Origin: a virus
Virus record (IMG/VR): IMGVR_UViG_3300011271_000002
Span: 40,423-104,422 of that record
Length of the DNA stretch: 64,000 bases
Direction: 5' to 3' (one strand)
In this document: one piece after another, positions 6,420 to 54,156 of the stretch
Position numbering within the stretch: the stretch's first letter is position 1
Layout of the letters: each line of letters opens with the position of its first letter
Translations under genes and position numbers: made by a program
The notes under the pieces: generated by a model
What the model was told of the DNA's origin: nothing
Databases searched by the model: none
What the model saw: the letters and a program-made list of their open reading frames with translations, nothing else

Positions 6420-9371
6420 TTAATTTCCGGCAGAGGACAGCGTTCCATAGGGGACGCGTCGAAGGCGATCGGCATTCACGCGTACGGCGGTGCCAACGGC
6501 ATCACGATGCGCCGCGAGTATACCCATCCTCGTTCGTTGCTCGGTGAGCACGGGATCCGTCCCGCGCGCATCGATTGCATAGTATGCATTCGGCCCGCCA
6601 CCGCCGAATGCCCGGCGCGCGGACGCATTGCTCATGATCGTACCTGGGCTATTTGGGAAAAACGGCTCGGCACCGCGCTCTCCGACCAAATAGGCCGACC
6701 CAGGCGAGACTGGACCGCCGCTAGCATGCGGTATCAGCGAGCTCGCCAACAGACTGAAAATCCCACCTCCCTTGTCGCCCTCACCGAATAGTCCCCCAAT
6801 GCTCTTGCCGAGTCCGTCTCTCGCGCCGCCGAGTCCGAGTGAATCGGCTAGCTTCATATAGCCCGGATTGGTTTTTGTGAAATCCGGCTTGCCGCCGCCG
6901 ATGAGATCCGTTAGCCCGCTGAGCTTAGGAAATGCCTTGCCAAGCGCGCCAAGGCCTTTTTGGGCCATGCCCTTGATCTGGCCCTCGACTACATGGCCGC
7001 CAATGTCCTGGAAGACTTTGCTGAAAGACGTTTTCTGGAAGGTCGCCAACTTGGCCAGCTCGCCGGTGACGCGATCAAAGCCCATGTGAAACGCTTCGTA
7101 AATGCTTTCGGCGGCCGATTTACCATCCCGTTGCATGTCCAAGAAAAAGGCCCGGACGCCATCTCGCATGCCACGCATGGCGAGCGATTGTTCCGCGAGA
7201 ATTCGGAGTTGATCGTTGCGGAGATTGCGTAGCGAAAGTTCGATTTCGAAATTCGTGTGCCCGCTGGCAATGATCAGCTCGAGTGTGGTGATCTGCTGAT
7301 TCAGCGCTTCCAACTGATTTTTGTAGATTAGACCGGTGCGCATGGCCTCGGCGGTGATCTGCCGTTGATGTTCCAATCGGGCCTCGCCGGCCTCCGCCAC
7401 AGCCTCTTGCGTCAATCCGCCGGCACCAGGAATCGGAGTGCCACCACTTCTCACGGATTCGATAGCTCTATTTTTTAATGCCGCGCGCCGTTCCGCCTCG
7501 GCGCCTTCCGTGATGGCCGCAGTGAGTCGCTTCGTGGCGGCGATTCTTTCGTTGATGCGTGTCATCGCAGCCGCGGATTGATTGATCCCTCTCGCCTTGA
7601 ATAAATCAAGCTCGGCCTTAATCTGCTCCTTTGTGGCACCGTCCTCTTGCATCTTGGCGAGTTTGACTTGAAGGGTCGCCAAGCGCACCGCTTCCGCTCC
7701 CTGACTTTGGACTTGCGCCAAGCGGTTTTCCAGAGTGATTTCGTCCATCAATTTATCGGAAGCGTTCTTTGCCTGCTCGAGATGCTTCGCTTCATACTCT
7801 GCGGCGTATTTGGATCGCACTGCCGTCACCTCATTCAGGTGGGTGAGCATAAATATTTCATCGTTGTATTTCTCAGCGCCCACGGCCGCGGCCACGCGGG
7901 TTTCCACGTTCGCCTTTTTGATGGCCTCGTATCCTTTCCCGATCGCGGCGGTCAAGGTCTCCTGGGATCGAACGCTATTCCTGATCTGCGCCGTGGTCTG
8001 GGCCAGTTTCGTCTTCCACTTTTCCTCTTCGCCAGTGGTCACGATCTGAAGCTCAATAGCTTTGATGGAATCCTTCTGCGAGGTGCTCAGTTGCGTGTGC
8101 CGACGTTCTAAGGCCTTGTTCACCTCCTCGATAATTTTCAGCGACTCCCCATAAGCTGCGGCAACCGCTTTTTCTGCCTCGCTGAGTCCGGCAGCGTCCA
8201 CCTTCGCCTTTGCCGCCGCTAGTTCCGCCGCCAATTTTTTCATGCGGTCCTGGAACGGGCGATCCAGTTTGGCGTTTTCGGCATCGCTCGTAAGTTTTTC
8301 CTTTTTTGCGGCCAGATCCTCTTCGGCGAACTTTTTAGGAACATACCGGGCTTGTTCGGCCACATAGCGACGGGCTTCCTTCAACTCCTCCAATTCCACG
8401 GTGTTTTCAGTGGTAGCAGCGTGCCCTACGAGGCTTGGCACTCCTTGTGGATTTACCAGCGTACGGGATTTTGGACTAGTCTCGTATCGTAAAGTGTTCT
8501 TTCTGGCTTCTTCCGCATCGGCGATGCGTTTATCCAGGATTGCCAACTTAGCATCGAAGAAGTCTTTCAACTCACTTTTTGTCTTTTCGCGCGCGGCCGC
8601 TATTGCTGCGGTTTGGAGTTTGGGATCTTTAATCGTTCCAGCAGCTTCTATTTTGGCCCGCCCTTGGTCGGTGATAACATCCATTTCGGCCTTCATGCCG
8701 CCACCGCCAGCTTTACCACCGATAAACTCGCGGATGTATTTCGTGCCGGTCTCGCCGAGCAATCGCCGCATGATGCCGACGTCTGATTCCTTGAGTAGTT
8801 TGTAAAGCGCGGAGAGGTCTCTGTCCAGAGCCATCGCTAGATTGTCGGCCGCAGCGCGGGCTTCATCCAACGCTAGTTTCAGCGTGTTCTGTCTTCGCCC
8901 TTCCAATTTGGCGATCTGGTTTTCGAGGCGATCATTCGTCACGTCGAGTTGATCGTTTGTCAATTTTAGCGGAGCATTCAACTCTCGAAACATCAGATTC
9001 ACTTTTTCAGGGGCGTTCTGTATGGTTTTGAAAAATTCGTAAACTTTTTCTCCAATGCCGACGATCAAGCCTGAAAAGGCAACCGCGCCAACGATGGGAA
9101 AGGCAGCCTGCAACACCGGGCTCAGCCCCAGCGTTGTGGACATGAAGCGCTCTACCGCCCGCACGTTGTGGGTGAGATTGCCCTCCATCGTACGGATCGC
9201 GCCGCTCGCCGCCATCATACTCGATGCGGTGTGGCCGCCGAACTCCCGCATGGCCTGCGATCCGGAGGAGCCGAATTTCTTTACACGAACCTCGGCTTGA
9301 TTGATATCGCTGGTGAAGCGGCTGGTGCCTGCGGCGAGATCGATGACCACGGTTCCAATTCTTTTTGGCAC
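6420..9371 (-). CDS. Tail tape measure protein (983 aa)
   Basis: N-terminal IGTVVIDLAAGTSRF, long Ala/Glu/Lys-rich helical body, C-terminal HASGGPVSPGSAYLVGERGAEPFFP motif. Confidence 0.93.
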   Translation of the reverse strand: MPKRIGTVVIDLAAGTSRFTSDINQAEVRVKKFGSSGSQAMREFGGHTASSMMAASGAIRTMEGNLTHNVRAVERFMSTTLGLSPVLQAAFPIVGAVAFSGLIVGIGEKVYEFFKTIQNAPEKVNLMFRELNAPLKLTNDQLDVTNDRLENQIAKLEGRRQNTLKLALDEARAAADNLAMALDRDLSALYKLLKESDVGIMRRLLGETGTKYIREFIGGKAGGGGMKAEMDVITDQGRAKIEAAGTIKDPKLQTAAIAAAREKTKSELKDFFDAKLAILDKRIADAEEARKNTLRYETSPKSRTLVNPQGVPSLVGHAATTENTVELEELKEARRYVAEQARYVPKKFAEEDLAAKKEKLTSDAENAKLDRPFQDRMKKLAAELAAAKAKVDAAGLSEAEKAVAAAYGESLKIIEEVNKALERRHTQLSTSQKDSIKAIELQIVTTGEEEKWKTKLAQTTAQIRNSVRSQETLTAAIGKGYEAIKKANVETRVAAAVGAEKYNDEIFMLTHLNEVTAVRSKYAAEYEAKHLEQAKNASDKLMDEITLENRLAQVQSQGAEAVRLATLQVKLAKMQEDGATKEQIKAELDLFKARGINQSAAAMTRINERIAATKRLTAAITEGAEAERRAALKNRAIESVRSGGTPIPGAGGLTQEAVAEAGEARLEHQRQITAEAMRTGLIYKNQLEALNQQITTLELIIASGHTNFEIELSLRNLRNDQLRILAEQSLAMRGMRDGVRAFFLDMQRDGKSAAESIYEAFHMGFDRVTGELAKLATFQKTSFSKVFQDIGGHVVEGQIKGMAQKGLGALGKAFPKLSGLTDLIGGGKPDFTKTNPGYMKLADSLGLGGARDGLGKSIGGLFGEGDKGGGIFSLLASSLIPHASGGPVSPGSAYLVGERGAEPFFPNSPGTIMSNASARRAFGGGGPNAYYAIDARGTDPVLTEQRTRMGILAAHRDAVGTAVRVNADRLRRVPYGTLSSAGN

Positions 9372-9922
9372 TAGATCGCCGCCTTTATTTTTTCAGAACA
9401 GGGCTTGCCACGCCAGGCATAATCGATCCGCGATTGGGTAAAATAGAAACGGGCCGCGACGAAGTTCATAGCTTCGTGCAGCCCTGACCGATGCGACCGA
9501 TAGGGAGTCACATGGCTACCACCAATACTAAGGGACCAGAGCCGAATAGTGGCTGTTGGCTGTGGACTGGCATGCTCAAGGATAGCGGCTACGGAAAGAT
9601 TCAAACCGGCACGTTCGCCAACCCCAACATGCAGCGGGCGCATCGCGTTGCCTACGAATTGTTCGTTGGCCCAATACCTCCCGGACTGCAACTTGACCAT
9701 CTTTGCCGGGTTTCTAGTTGCGTCAATCCGAATCATCTGGAGCCGGTCACTAATGCAGAGAACACAAGACGCGGAATCGCAGGACAGTGGCAGAAAAACA
9801 AAACACATTGCCCACAGGGTCATGAATACACAATTGAAAATACCATGATGTATTTGGGAAAGTGGAGGCGCTGCCGAACATGCAGCAGAGAGCGTAATCA
9901 TCTTGCCGCTTGACGAGCTCAC
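9371..9922 (-). CDS. Possible bridging ORF, in-register antisense to the HNH gene
   Basis: Start overlaps the gp10-like stop (GTGA) and stop overlaps the TMP start (TAGTG). The protein sequence itself is not recognisable. Confidence 0.35.
   Translation of the reverse strand: MSSSSGKMITLSAACSAAPPLSQIHHGIFNCVFMTLWAMCFVFLPLSCDSASCVLCISDRLQMIRIDATRNPAKMVKLQSGRYWANEQFVGNAMRPLHVGVGERAGLNLSVAAILEHASPQPTATIRLWSLSIGGSHVTPYRSHRSGLHEAMNFVAARFYFTQSRIDYAWRGKPCSEKIKAAI
9512..9913 (+). CDS. HNH homing endonuclease inserted antisense in the tail operon
   Basis: GCWLWTG, AHRVAYELFVGPIP, DHLCRVSSCVNPNHLEPVTNAEN, KTHCPQGHEY; SD AGGGAG before ATG 9512. Confidence 0.9.
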   Translation: MATTNTKGPEPNSGCWLWTGMLKDSGYGKIQTGTFANPNMQRAHRVAYELFVGPIPPGLQLDHLCRVSSCVNPNHLEPVTNAENTRRGIAGQWQKNKTHCPQGHEYTIENTMMYLGKWRRCRTCSRERNHLAA

Positions 9923-10374
9923 GGAATCACCATGCTAGTTGAACCCTGCGGGAATTGCTCCCTTACGGTCTGTGCCAAAGAGTCGGCAAATGCGGCTATG
10001 GCCCGTTCCGCTGAACTATCAAACGCCACTCTCATAAAAGGGTGTGGAGCGATCATCCCCTCCGCTTTTTTTCCCGGCTTGTGGCCGATCATGCGATGCC
10101 CGTATTCCACCCACAGCGCGCGCTGGCCCATTTTGCCATAGCCGATTCTGGCCAAGCCGCCGCGGAGTTGATTGTCGAGAGTGATCTCCATCATCCGCGC
10201 TGCCTTGAGTTTCCCTTCGCGGACCGGTTCTCTGATGTTGAGCTCGCGATTGATTTCCTGCGCGCCGGCGTTCAGTGCTTTAAGGAAACCAGTGGCCACG
10301 ATGATCTTGGGTGCCTCGCGTAGCATCTTGCAGACATCCTCGATGCCGATGATCCGCGAGACCTCGCCAGCCAT
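9919..10374 (-). CDS. HK97 gp10-like tail completion protein
   Basis: PVREGKLK, WVEYGH and PHPFMRVAFD motifs. Confidence 0.85.
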   Translation of the reverse strand: MAGEVSRIIGIEDVCKMLREAPKIIVATGFLKALNAGAQEINRELNIREPVREGKLKAARMMEITLDNQLRGGLARIGYGKMGQRALWVEYGHRMIGHKPGKKAEGMIAPHPFMRVAFDSSAERAIAAFADSLAQTVREQFPQGSTSMVIP

Positions 10375-10383
10375 GAGTTAATC

Positions 10384-10872
10384 TTAGCCGCTTGCGGCAG
10401 CTTCGACCGGCAATGCTTCCGGGTTGGGCGTTGGTGACGCGGGCGGCGGCACTTCCGCAGTCGCAGGCTCGGGCGTTGGCTGTGACGGGGAAGGATTAAG
10501 CAGTTCGTCCAGGCTTTTCGGCTCGTTGCCCATCGAGACATTGTAGGCGTTTGCCAGGGCGGCCATCGCGATCCCGAGCCGATCGACGCGCAGCAGCTTG
10601 CCGGTTTCCTTGAGCGAATCTTTCTTGCTCAATCCAGGGAAAGCCGCCTCAGGCCCAGCTTCCAGCGCGGCGAAGAAAAGCCCGCGCAATTCCGCAGCCG
10701 TGATGCCGCCGCCCTCGCCCGTGATGCGGAGCAGCGCACTGAAAAGATTGCAACCGCAGATTTCCTCTACGTCCACGATGGTGTTGAAATCGTAGGCGAG
10801 CGTCAGTTCCTCGGCATCGTCGTCGTCAAACTTGAATCGATAGTATTTCAGATCGTCTTTCGGTTGTGGCAT
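10384..10872 (-). CDS. Tail assembly chaperone (gpG-like)
   Basis: LTLAYDFNTIVDVEEICG, ELRGLFFAAL; position between tail tube and TMP. Confidence 0.7.
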   Translation of the reverse strand: MPQPKDDLKYYRFKFDDDDAEELTLAYDFNTIVDVEEICGCNLFSALLRITGEGGGITAAELRGLFFAALEAGPEAAFPGLSKKDSLKETGKLLRVDRLGIAMAALANAYNVSMGNEPKSLDELLNPSPSQPTPEPATAEVPPPASPTPNPEALPVEAAASG

Positions 10873-10876
10873 GTGT

Positions 10877-11545
10877 TCACCCTTGTTTTCTAAACTGCGC
10901 AAAATGTCTCATCAGGTATTCGCCAGTGATCGGCTGCTCACGCTGCTTGGCCCAGGGATGCAGCATGAAGGCGTCGGCACGCAACGGCTCCTTCGGGGCC
11001 AATTGGCTGTAGTTCGCGTTGTTGGCGATGACCATCCCAAACATCAGTTCCCATTGTCGTAGATTTTCAATGTGCCGGCGCAGAAGTGCCTGAAGAAGTT
11101 TGGGCGTCAGATCAAGCCATTCGCGATCAGTGAGGCGAAGATTCTCGTGGGCCATCGCCCAAGCTTCTGGCCAACTCAACGATTTGGCCTGTTTCGCGGA
11201 TTCGCCTTCATCGGCATTTTCCGAATCTTCTTCCTCGTTTCTCTCTGGCATCGAGGCCTGCCAGGCTCTGAAAAGGATGTTCCTGACATTCATCACGTTC
11301 CCGAGATGAAGGATTTCGCCGGCAGCCCGAATCGAACAATCAGCGCCAACGTGGGTAAGAATTTCGAAAAGCACGCTGCGGAGCGTTTTAGCCGCTGGGC
11401 GGACAAGGTTCAGATTTCCTGCCAAGACGTCCAGGCCGGTGCTGCTTTCAAGTTTCAACAGAAGCTCGTGCGTGAAGAGAATTCGCCAGCGTCGGCCGCC
11501 GAAAGGCAATTCGATCACCGGGCTGAGAATTTCGGCTATCGTCAC
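10877..11545 (-). CDS. Tail assembly chaperone (gpG-T-like)
   Basis: N-terminal WRILFTHELLLKLESSTG plus C-terminal LRLTDREWLDLTPKLLQALL (gpT-like). Confidence 0.65.
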   Translation of the reverse strand: MTIAEILSPVIELPFGGRRWRILFTHELLLKLESSTGLDVLAGNLNLVRPAAKTLRSVLFEILTHVGADCSIRAAGEILHLGNVMNVRNILFRAWQASMPERNEEEDSENADEGESAKQAKSLSWPEAWAMAHENLRLTDREWLDLTPKLLQALLRRHIENLRQWELMFGMVIANNANYSQLAPKEPLRADAFMLHPWAKQREQPITGEYLMRHFAQFRKQG

Positions 11546-40183: not shown

Positions 40184-41209
40184 CTACATGTTGATGACGG
40201 AGATGCCGGTAGCGTAAGAATTGGTTCCGTCGTCGAGAAACGATACAACTGTACACTTCGACGCCGTAAGACCGATGTCTGGATGACCCAACATCGTGGC
40301 TGGCCAAACGAAGGTAAAGTTCCCAGTTCCATTTTGGCAGACTTTGATTATTGGCTCAAGGCCGTTCGAATGATTCGATACCGTCGCTCCGGTGACGTTG
40401 CCGGTCAGTGTGATGGTGAAAATGTCCGACAAACTTAGATCAAAATTAGGCGTGGCGGAAAATGACACCGTCGTGCTCTTGTGTGCCATGTTGCCTGGCA
40501 GAATGATGGCAGTAGCCAACGAGATCACCGGAGTTGTACCTCCAGTGCTCGCGATTTGATTGCTCGTACCGTTGACTGCTGTCACGGAACCACCAGCGCT
40601 ACCACAAGCCCCTGACTGAGGATTGAATAGTTGGAATTGAGTTCCATCATAAATGACTTCGGCCACGGCCGCCGTGATCAGATCATTCGCCACAAGAGCC
40701 GTAGTTCCGCACTTCGTGATGGCCGTGGCGGTAAGACCATTGACCGCTAGCGTCGGAGCCGCTCCGGTATTGGCCGCATTCGGCTTGAAATAAAGCGTGA
40801 GACCGGTCGTCAACGCCGTAGCGGCAGGAGCTAGCGTTGCGGTCTGAGCTTGCGCCGTGCCACCACCCGCGATGTAGTCGGTTGCGTTGAGATCAGAGAA
40901 ACTCTTGCCAGCTGGATCGGCTCCCGTCACGCCACTCAAGATAGCTAGGTTCGCAAGCGCTACGCCGCCGATCGCATTGCCAGAAGCTGCGTTAACCGAT
41001 ACGCTATGATTCGCCGCCCCGCTATTGACGTTGCAGGTAGAACCTAAGGTACAGGTCTGGCCATTGACGGTAGTGGAAGCATTACTCAGCGAGCCGTTGG
41101 TAACACTAGCCAGCGTTTGATTTGGGACGCCATTGATGGTGCCGGTACCTTGTGCGAAAGCCGCTATTGCGATTAGCTGCAACGAGAAGGCGAGACGAAG
41201 AGAACGCAT
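40184..41209 (-). CDS. Signal-peptide protein with two tail-fibre modules
   Basis: MRSLRLAFSLQLIAIAAFA/Q; GGTAQAQTAT module and ITLTGNVT...CQ..TG..TF.W module. Confidence 0.8.
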   Translation of the reverse strand: MRSLRLAFSLQLIAIAAFAQGTGTINGVPNQTLASVTNGSLSNASTTVNGQTCTLGSTCNVNSGAANHSVSVNAASGNAIGGVALANLAILSGVTGADPAGKSFSDLNATDYIAGGGTAQAQTATLAPAATALTTGLTLYFKPNAANTGAAPTLAVNGLTATAITKCGTTALVANDLITAAVAEVIYDGTQFQLFNPQSGACGSAGGSVTAVNGTSNQIASTGGTTPVISLATAIILPGNMAHKSTTVSFSATPNFDLSLSDIFTITLTGNVTGATVSNHSNGLEPIIKVCQNGTGNFTFVWPATMLGHPDIGLTASKCTVVSFLDDGTNSYATGISVINM

Positions 41210-52626: not shown

Positions 52627-54156
52627 ATGAAACTATTTACCGCCCCGTCTACGTGCGGGCCCAAGCGGAGTGCTCAGGCTTTTTTCGATAGTCCAACCCA
52701 AACGCAATCTACGATGCAACGCCCCGAGATTAATTCCGGAATGCCTCCCCCACTCGGGAAGGGTCTTGCTAATCCCGTCGATAGTAAAAACGTGCGCCAG
52801 CATACGCCTTGGGGCCGTCAGCGCCTTTTCCTGCGTCCATCCATGTCTCAGCCGCCTGATCAAAAACTTTCGATTGACTCCAGTGGTTTTTGCCCACTCA
52901 CTCGTACGCCTAGTCTCTCCGTTAAGCGTCACGAGAAGATCTGGAATCGCTCTGACGGGCTTCGGAGAAGTAGTGAGTGTCCGCTCTTCACTCCAGCCGC
53001 GAACAAGACGCCGCCGCAATGTAGCATCCTTTATTCCCGTCACTTCACACCATTCGGTCAGCGTTCTAGTAACTTCGCCAAGAGTCAAGAAAACAGTGGT
53101 GCGTTTGTTTCTTCCTTGCTCAAGCTTCGTTCCCCATTTGCAATTGTCGGGACTGTATGGGCCATTGTTGTTGACTCTCTCAATGCTGTGCTCAGGCGTT
53201 GGACGGGGACCCATATCGGCGAAAAAAGCGGCGAAATCGTGCCATCGTTCGCAGAGCGTGATGCCTCTCGCTCCATAGTTCTTAAAAGCTTTATTGCTCG
53301 GAGTTTCGCATCGGGATTTCATTTGATGCCACGCGCCATACTCTGGCCTATCGTGAAGTCCGTGGCGATGGTACGATATCTTGGGCATCGGGGAAATTCA
53401 TCCTTTTCTCGGTGCAATAGGGCCGCGCTGCTTACAACAGTAGCGACTCTGTGCATTTTAACAGGATTGTGCCCTACGACAACGGCCCAAACGGTCACGG
53501 TACCAGTAAGAATTGTCTCAACCTTCGAATCGATCGGCACGCTTCGCGCTGTGACTAACGCGAAGAATATCGGCAAGCACAATCTCAGCTTTTGTAACGA
53601 TGGGCAATTTCCGGTCGATCTGCCGCCCGAGCGGATTCTCCAGGCCTTGCCGGATCTACCAATGCTCGACGTTGCGGAAGCGATTACCCTTATGCGCCTG
53701 GCCTACAGTCGCAATTGGAAATTCAGCATCGCCCGATATGCGGAATACGCTCTGATCATCGTGGGAGCCGTGGCTTCAGGTGGCGCGACCGCAGTTTTCG
53801 TAATCTCAGCCAAGGGGCTTTCTAAGATAATTGCCGCGATAGGAATCATGCACGTGGTCGGCGACAAGTTGAAAGGGGAAGTGCCTCCACTTGAGGACTT
53901 CGTTAAAAACGCGCTAATCGATACGATCCACCTTGGCCCGGCCGGCAGCATCAATCAATGCGCGCGTCGCGTCGCATTCACTGGAATTATACATGGGGTC
54001 CACGGCTACAATGTCGTGGTGCAGGTTCCAGTGGCGCCGGCGGCCGCGATTCGAGTTGCCGAAGTTGCACCAGCACCGGCACAGAAGCCGATCCAAGCCG
54101 AAGAGGTTCGCCAGCTCGTGGCTTCCGCGATGAGCCTGGCGCTGTTCAATAATTAA
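52627..54156 (+). CDS. Exported/membrane protein whose 5' end carries an in-frame antisense HNH insertion
   Basis: SD AAAGGAG before ATG 52627; protein-like sequence begins at about 53430 (LLTTVATLCILTGLCPTTTAQTVTVPV); true start uncertain. Confidence 0.5.
   Translation: MKLFTAPSTCGPKRSAQAFFDSPTQTQSTMQRPEINSGMPPPLGKGLANPVDSKNVRQHTPWGRQRLFLRPSMSQPPDQKLSIDSSGFCPLTRTPSLSVKRHEKIWNRSDGLRRSSECPLFTPAANKTPPQCSILYSRHFTPFGQRSSNFAKSQENSGAFVSSLLKLRSPFAIVGTVWAIVVDSLNAVLRRWTGTHIGEKSGEIVPSFAERDASRSIVLKSFIARSFASGFHLMPRAILWPIVKSVAMVRYLGHRGNSSFSRCNRAALLTTVATLCILTGLCPTTTAQTVTVPVRIVSTFESIGTLRAVTNAKNIGKHNLSFCNDGQFPVDLPPERILQALPDLPMLDVAEAITLMRLAYSRNWKFSIARYAEYALIIVGAVASGGATAVFVISAKGLSKIIAAIGIMHVVGDKLKGEVPPLEDFVKNALIDTIHLGPAGSINQCARRVAFTGIIHGVHGYNVVVQVPVAPAAAIRVAEVAPAPAQKPIQAEEVRQLVASAMSLALFNN
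52633..53388 (-). CDS. HNH-like homing endonuclease (YGARGI family) with three C-terminal HTH repeats
   Basis: WHQMKSRC, YGARGITLCERW, SIERVNNNGPYSPDNCKW; three copies of T..G.T.TL.EW...GI....L.RRL..GW..EK.L. Confidence 0.85.
   Translation of the reverse strand: MPKISYHRHGLHDRPEYGAWHQMKSRCETPSNKAFKNYGARGITLCERWHDFAAFFADMGPRPTPEHSIERVNNNGPYSPDNCKWGTKLEQGRNKRTTVFLTLGEVTRTLTEWCEVTGIKDATLRRRLVRGWSEERTLTTSPKPVRAIPDLLVTLNGETRRTSEWAKTTGVNRKFLIRRLRHGWTQEKALTAPRRMLAHVFTIDGISKTLPEWGRHSGINLGALHRRLRLGWTIEKSLSTPLGPARRRGGK

Follow-up and report, generated by a model that had tools for sequence, protein, structure and literature searches.

How can a selfish gene sit backward in an essential phage operon, against the strand of both its neighbors, and remain harmless to the genes downstream? 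The question is raised by a 64,000-nucleotide stretch (the window; positions 40,423 to 104,422 of IMG/VR record IMGVR_UViG_3300011271_000002), taken from a virus record that is complete at 104,422 bp and carries terminal repeats. Between a gp10-like gene and a putative tape-measure gene of the minus-strand tail operon, the window holds a plus-strand HNH gene whose opposite strand is an uninterrupted open reading frame (ORF) reaching from one neighbor to the other. As read from sequence, we propose with a probability of about 0.6 that this backward HNH cassette carries a stop-free bridge on the operon strand along which ribosomes would pass from the gp10-like to the tape-measure gene, likely averting polarity or messenger RNA (mRNA) decay. 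The features concerned are as follows, with Shine-Dalgarno abbreviated as SD.

9372..9918, no strand assigned: inserted cassette of 547 bp, from the gp10-like stop codon to the tape-measure start codon; absent from the homologous junction in >30 relatives.
9512..9913, plus strand: HNH_3 homing-endonuclease gene, 133 aa from ATG 9512, with GGGAG at 9503-9507; PF13392, phrog_826.
9371..9922, minus strand: bridging ORF of 183 codons with a GTG start, in codon register with the HNH gene; from the ORF list and sequence reading.
9374..9511, minus strand: the 46 codons of the bridge that cover the HNH leader, outside the HNH codons; open in the bridging frame, with 1 and 3 stops in the other frames.
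9919..10374, minus strand: gp10-like tail-completion/Neck1 gene, 151 aa; phrog_5 at 5.3e-12; adjoins the tape-measure gene in relatives.
6420..9371, minus strand: putative tape-measure gene, 983 aa, GTG start; weak C-terminal PHROG tape-measure matches (1.9e-5, 1.7e-4).
9926..9931, minus strand: SD-like GGTGAT within the gp10-like gene near its 3' terminus, at a spacing of 3 nt from the bridge GTG; read from the sequence, putative in function.
9379..9385, minus strand: SD-like AAGGCGG in the last part of the bridge, at a spacing of 7 nt from the tape-measure GTG; likewise putative in function.

The state of the junction before the insertion can be read from relatives. The order major tail protein, p222, p172, gp10-like, and tape measure was kept in IMG/VR contigs and in prophages of Edaphobacter, Granulicella, and Terracidiphilus; this conserved order indicates that the host of the 104-kb soil phage is probably a member of the Acidobacteria. 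In >30 relatives, the distance from the gp10-like stop to the tape-measure start was only -11 to +9 nt (e.g., ATGA or TAAnATG), and because the two genes abut there, the 547 bp at 9372-9918 are an inserted cassette in a tightly coupled junction. The tape-measure proteins of relatives align from residues 1-6 of the window protein, which supports GTG 9371 as its start. Other inserts at this junction were small same-strand membrane-protein genes, a collagen-like gene, and a backward IS1595-type element. The junction is thus an insertion hot spot in relatives (L017:4245-4478, L163:4534-5288, L148:4456-5267, and L018:4559-5713): the small same-strand genes have a C-terminal membrane helix, and the collagen-like gene, in L018, is also on the same strand and encodes 384 aa with a GPT repeat.

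By its sequence, the plus-strand gene is a free-standing HNH_3 homing-endonuclease gene, with homing as its predicted activity. It is intact (Pfam HNH_3, PF13392, 54.3 bits against a cut-off of 24.8, 1e-14; phrog_826 at 2.7e-51), and while its longest ORF spans 9491..9913 on the plus strand, the likelier start is ATG 9512, behind GGGAG. The best homologs of the cassette in the IMG/VR and JGI metagenomes searched were 56-58% identical, and no near-identical relative was found in the phage collection. No empty-site variant was seen; soil DNA contigs from three studies carried the stretch unchanged, some of which may be from the source sample. A terminator scan of 9000-10500 found none. The original prediction had also given the HNH gene a promoter; this was not confirmed, as a sigma-70-type consensus scan of 9000-10500 returned no match, although that consensus may not be the promoter type of the host.

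The bridge fits exactly between its neighbors. At its start, GTG 9922-9920 overlaps the gp10-like TGA 9921-9919 (minus-strand text ATTCC-GTGA-GCTCG, with GTGA at 9922-9919), and at its end, TAG 9373-9371 overlaps the tape-measure GTG 9371-9369 (GATC-TAGTG-CCAAAA, with TAGTG at 9373-9369), such that the G of the bridge's TAG is the first base of the tape-measure GTG. Both ends therefore have the stop/start overlap of a translationally coupled junction. Because the two frames share codon boundaries, minus-strand stops can arise over the HNH gene only from its TTA, CTA, and TCA codons, and it contains none of the three. Over 9371-9922 as a whole, the bridging frame has 0 stops, and the other two minus frames have 10 and 8. 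These results bear out the anatomy claimed in the original prediction: an HNH gene inserted antisense between the gp10-like and tape-measure genes (by the family matches and the empty junction of relatives), an in-register minus ORF of 183 codons opposite to it (by the ORF list and the shared codon boundaries), and GTGA and TAGTG overlaps with the neighboring stop and start (by the minus-strand sequence). Two other explanations of the minus ORF were rejected. An intein was set aside given that no intein or Hint family matched and that the bridge is bounded by the stop and start of its neighbors, in a different frame from both; a tail chaperone made by programmed frameshift was set aside given that relatives carry nothing between the two genes.

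How surprising is such a frame at this locus alone? TTA, CTA, and TCA together make up 2.3% of the codons of 48 window genes, and a fully open in-register antisense frame occurred in only 1/48 other window genes. Given the 9 leucines and 5-6 serines of the HNH protein and phage codon use, the probability of no antisense stop over the HNH codons was 0.09-0.10, and that of an open 46-codon leader was ~0.21; jointly, the chance was ~0.02, with the overlaps at both ends not counted. For a feature chosen after the fact, this is suggestive but not decisive.

The stronger evidence came from 226 non-redundant loci with homologous HNH_3 genes, drawn from IMG/VR and JGI metagenomes. Loci were classed according to which strand carried the nearest long ORF to either side, an assignment that rests on ORF heuristics rather than curated gene calls, and the expected count of TTA, CTA, and TCA was computed from the leucine and serine content of each HNH protein and the codon use of the locus. 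The two main classes compared as follows.

Both flanks on the opposite strand, 35 loci: 14 stop-free vs 7.1 expected (P=0.0017); 62 antisense stops vs 87.7 expected.
Both flanks on the same strand, 77 loci: 9 stop-free vs 7.8 expected (P=0.38); 338 antisense stops vs 281 expected.

Loci with mixed flanks agreed with the null. The original prediction had expected HNH genes inserted antisense to be depleted of the three codons relative to those inserted in sense, and had named codon bias as the alternative; the excess of stop-free frames appeared only where the HNH gene is backward to both neighbors, which favors that prediction. Among informative loci, defined by a chance of zero antisense stops <0.2, 8/21 with opposite flanks and 4/65 with same-strand flanks were stop-free (Fisher p=0.001). 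Because long shadow ORFs in GC-rich contigs could mislabel the strand of a flank, a re-check kept only loci whose flanks had the codon-position GC pattern of real genes; informative stop-free loci then numbered 4/9 (0.37 expected) in the backward class and 0/39 in the same-strand class (p=0.00065). The strongest cases were two AT-rich loci, alongside which PHROG confirmed baseplate/tail and head genes: L061 (37% GC) had 0 antisense stops in 261 codons (P0=3e-7), and L041 (38% GC) was also stop-free (P0=0.004). The HNH gene of L061 uses neither TTA nor TCA, whereas its flanks use TTA for 25/64 leucines and TCA for 25/54 serines. Together with the observation that G+C content at third codon positions (GC3) was lower in HNH genes than in their flanks, this usage indicates that the avoidance is specific to TTA, CTA, and TCA and not a general codon bias. 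Across backward homologs, then, the reverse frame is free of stops more often than codon use predicts, as in ambigrammatic sequences, while same-strand controls fit the null. Two further homologs lie backward within very long open frames (L074:3-3041, >1000 codons; L066:1189-3396, 735 codons), which suggests HNH genes nested antisense in large genes or inteins.

The geometry of these loci resembled that of the window. In stop-free backward cases, the open frame ran past the HNH codons, and in 16/16 the distance between the bridge stop and the following gene's start was -35 to +32 nt (within 10 nt in 11/16), with several ends forming ATGA-type or 1-nt overlaps. The first bridge start often overlapped the stop of the preceding gene by 4 nt, and NTGA-type overlaps recurred. 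Spacer outside the HNH codons was open in the bridging frame in 9/14, and in the remaining 5 the only stop was the one that terminates the bridge; for the other two frames, the open counts were 2/14 and 4/14, and same-strand controls had no frame preference. Bridge lengths ranged from 162 to 317 codons and tracked the gap between the neighbors, not the HNH gene. Since the flanks were unrelated and the HNH proteins only 33-57% identical, these stop-free cases are independent of one another. The best INPHARED matches inspected for the backward design were co-oriented with their neighbors (an HNH gene of Clavibacter phage CN1A and an endonuclease gene of Ralstonia phage Gervaise). The CN1A homolog (L540:2501-2821; NC_023549.1 8819-9139), 56% identical and on the same strand as its neighbors, is unannotated and lies in a 578-bp gap between CN1A_15 and CN1A_16.

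Other backward elements carried similar frames. The phage has a second backward HNH gene outside the window (G000:C1:21657-22367, plus strand; L185:1309-2019; phrog_826 at 2.8e-26), with 1 antisense stop (CTA, codon 134) vs 4.3 expected (probability of at most one, 0.058). An ATG two codons past that stop yields two relay ORFs. The IS1595-type element mentioned above (L005:4474-5979) lies backward in the gp10-like/tape-measure junction of a relative and is recognized as an insertion by inverted repeats of 13 bp, a duplicated 8-bp target (TAACAAAT), and the empty site seen in L006 around 4250. Its operon strand has an ORF of 495 codons that begins within one inverted repeat and ends within its partner, and the other frames have 17 and 11 stops. 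Among relatives of the L005 transposase (L234-L304), 33/54 had an in-register antisense frame stop-free over ~305 codons, at a per-locus chance of 1e-5 to 0.05, and in six short IS1595-type copies that frame was open over all or nearly all of the distance between the repeats.

Selection for a stop-free bridge is supported by these sequence comparisons, and from them we infer that the bridge is translated and that its translation is of benefit. In the mechanism we propose, a free-standing HNH cassette would have inserted backward exactly between the gp10-like stop and the tape-measure start. With its coding part free of TTA, CTA, and TCA and its leader open, the late-operon messenger would present one uninterrupted 183-codon ORF over the insert. 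Ribosomes ending the gp10-like gene could restart at the overlapping GTG, which has the SD-like GGTGAT 3 nt upstream, and, once through the bridge, would terminate on the base that opens the tape-measure start codon. Some 550 nt of foreign antisense RNA would thus never be left untranslated, so that transcriptional polarity or mRNA decay would be avoided, and translation of the bridge would deliver ribosomes to the tape-measure start. Protection against polarity or decay is the more likely benefit, and obligatory re-initiation the less likely one, because the tape-measure gene has an SD-like AAGGCGG of its own and relatives tolerate gaps of 52-300 nt. The ribosome-bridging idea of the original prediction is thus supported in part, by the orientation-specific excess of stop-free frames and by bridges ending at the start of the next gene, while strict coupling by re-initiation does not appear obligatory.

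Several observations weigh against this proposal, beyond the modest odds at the locus itself and the heuristic assignment of flank strands in the survey. Antisense stops were present in ~60% of backward HNH homologs; a stop-free bridge is frequent among backward HNH genes but neither universal nor required. The bridge over the second HNH gene of the phage stops 130 nt short of the next gene. Where relatives carry same-strand inserts, the tape-measure start lies 52-300 nt past the preceding stop, so that coupling is dispensable there, and the window gene's AAGGCGG, at its 7-nt spacing, could likewise serve an independent start. The minus-strand RNA of the cassette is not C-rich by base skew, unlike a classic Rho loading site, a point that we judged uninformative.

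Could the 183-aa product instead be a functional protein overlapping the HNH gene, for instance one that regulates or inhibits the nuclease or that serves in the virion or its assembly? Selection seems to act on the frame, which also has a start codon and an SD-like motif, and overlapping antisense genes are known in general. Yet the product matched no Pfam or PHROG family, and its Cys/Ser/Ala-rich sequence is what would be expected from a gene read in reverse. The frame is also open over leaders that are not homologous, and the length of the bridge varies with the gap between the neighbors. We therefore regard a functional protein as unlikely and the peptide itself as probably a by-product, given the missing family match, its reverse-reading look, and lengths that track the gap.

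A second alternative, which we consider quite unlikely, is that the stop-free reverse frame was inherited from a cassette lineage that once lay backward inside coding sequences or inteins and later moved to this junction. Antisense endonuclease genes inside inteins are indeed on record, and the homologs in L074 and L066 lie inside very long open minus frames. It would leave the open 46-codon leader and the exact stop/start overlaps unexplained, however; the bridge has no intein family match, and among proteins 33-57% identical, stops would have reappeared at synonymous positions had selection not continued. In the inteins with an antisense homing-endonuclease ORF (Gorbalenya 1998 and Gogarten 2002, as cited in bioRxiv 10.1101/2025.01.02.630785), the endonuclease is likewise on the opposite strand and the host-strand frame is open across it; there, the open frame belongs to an intein that is spliced out of one host protein, whereas that of the window is a separate ORF bounded by the stop and start of two neighbors.

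That the open frame is a functionless by-product of amino-acid content and codon use is very improbable: the single-part probabilities given above are not small, another window gene has such a frame, the feature was picked afterward, and most backward homologs have stops, but chance accounts neither for overlaps with the stop and start codons of both neighbors nor for an enrichment confined to the backward orientation, and with HNH GC3 below that of the flanks, the chance estimate is if anything generous.

Several known systems resemble the proposed arrangement in part. Phage morons are extra genes inserted between conserved structural genes, as are the window HNH gene and the small membrane-protein and collagen-like genes found at this junction in relatives; morons are co-oriented with their surroundings, have their own signals, and lack a reverse-strand bridge, whereas the window gene is backward and has one. 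The seg and mob genes of phage T4 are similar as selfish endonuclease genes between conserved phage genes that must fit the expression program of their host. All T4 homing-endonuclease genes are co-oriented with their neighbors, segD excepted, for which flanking terminators but no bridging frame are described; the same review treats coupling for same-strand genes only, with UAAUGA as the stop/start overlap of mobE (PMC2988022). The window gene differs from these in being backward, with a stop-free ORF on the operon strand. In the actinophage ShiLan, an HNH gene is hidden in a methylase gene with no detectable splicing (PMC11855218) and, like that of the window, leaves the host reading frame stop-free. 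The ShiLan gene is on the same strand, out of frame, and inside a gene, however, whereas the window gene is on the opposite strand, in register, and between genes.

A parallel for the reverse frame itself is found in the ambigrammatic narnaviruses. According to published accounts (PMC6884476, PMC8316113, and PMC8155312), these viruses keep an in-register reverse frame stop-free by avoiding UUA, CUA, and UCA, the three codons missing from the window cassette; translation of the reverse frame matters, and its product is argued not to be a functional protein. They differ from the window in being eukaryotic RNA viruses with a genome-wide reverse frame and no link to an operon or neighboring genes. 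The window thus combines a free-standing homing endonuclease with an ambigram-type reverse frame, both of kinds already known. Among CC-licensed PMC papers and bioRxiv preprints, we found no published account of a stop-free bridge between two genes over a backward endonuclease gene.

From 14 kb on, nearly all genes are on the minus strand, and the tail genes run on that strand in the order tail terminator, major tail protein, two phrog_2115 tail proteins, gp10-like, and putative tape measure. The two phrog_2115 genes are the following.

10384-10902 and 10877-11545, minus strand: two phrog_2115 "tail protein" genes with a mutual overlap of 26 nt; PHROG match.

This pair lies between the major tail protein gene and the gp10-like gene, a position usually occupied by tail-assembly chaperones. 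It is unusual for a gp10-like neck gene to come immediately before the tape-measure gene, but this phage group has conserved that order. The structural module also includes a gene for a family-2 glycosyltransferase (PF13704, PF00535; 12473-13444, minus strand), which lies just upstream of the gene for the tail terminator. Elsewhere, minus-strand genes surround a plus-strand ORF of 509 aa without a family match (52627-54156). Its in-register antisense frame has an open run of only 251 codons; if the ORF is a genuine backward gene, its bridge is thus incomplete.

Beyond this locus, and with odds that we place somewhat short of even, backward selfish genes in phage operons, namely HNH cassettes and at least one IS1595-type transposon family, may be "ambigrams" whose operon strand is a selected ribosome bridge, so that insertion in the wrong orientation is tolerated without splicing. 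If so, this would explain the "hypothetical protein" calls opposite HNH genes that are frequent in annotation pipelines, and it would supply a sequence signature separating tolerated from damaging insertions. Single changes synonymous for the nuclease could then serve to test polarity and coupling in phage late operons, and for phage engineering, it suggests a way to insert cargo in reverse orientation while the downstream genes stay expressed. For the phages themselves, it would be a third way, beside introns and inteins, for a selfish gene to sit harmlessly in an essential operon, with the insert merely translated through as a throw-away ORF.

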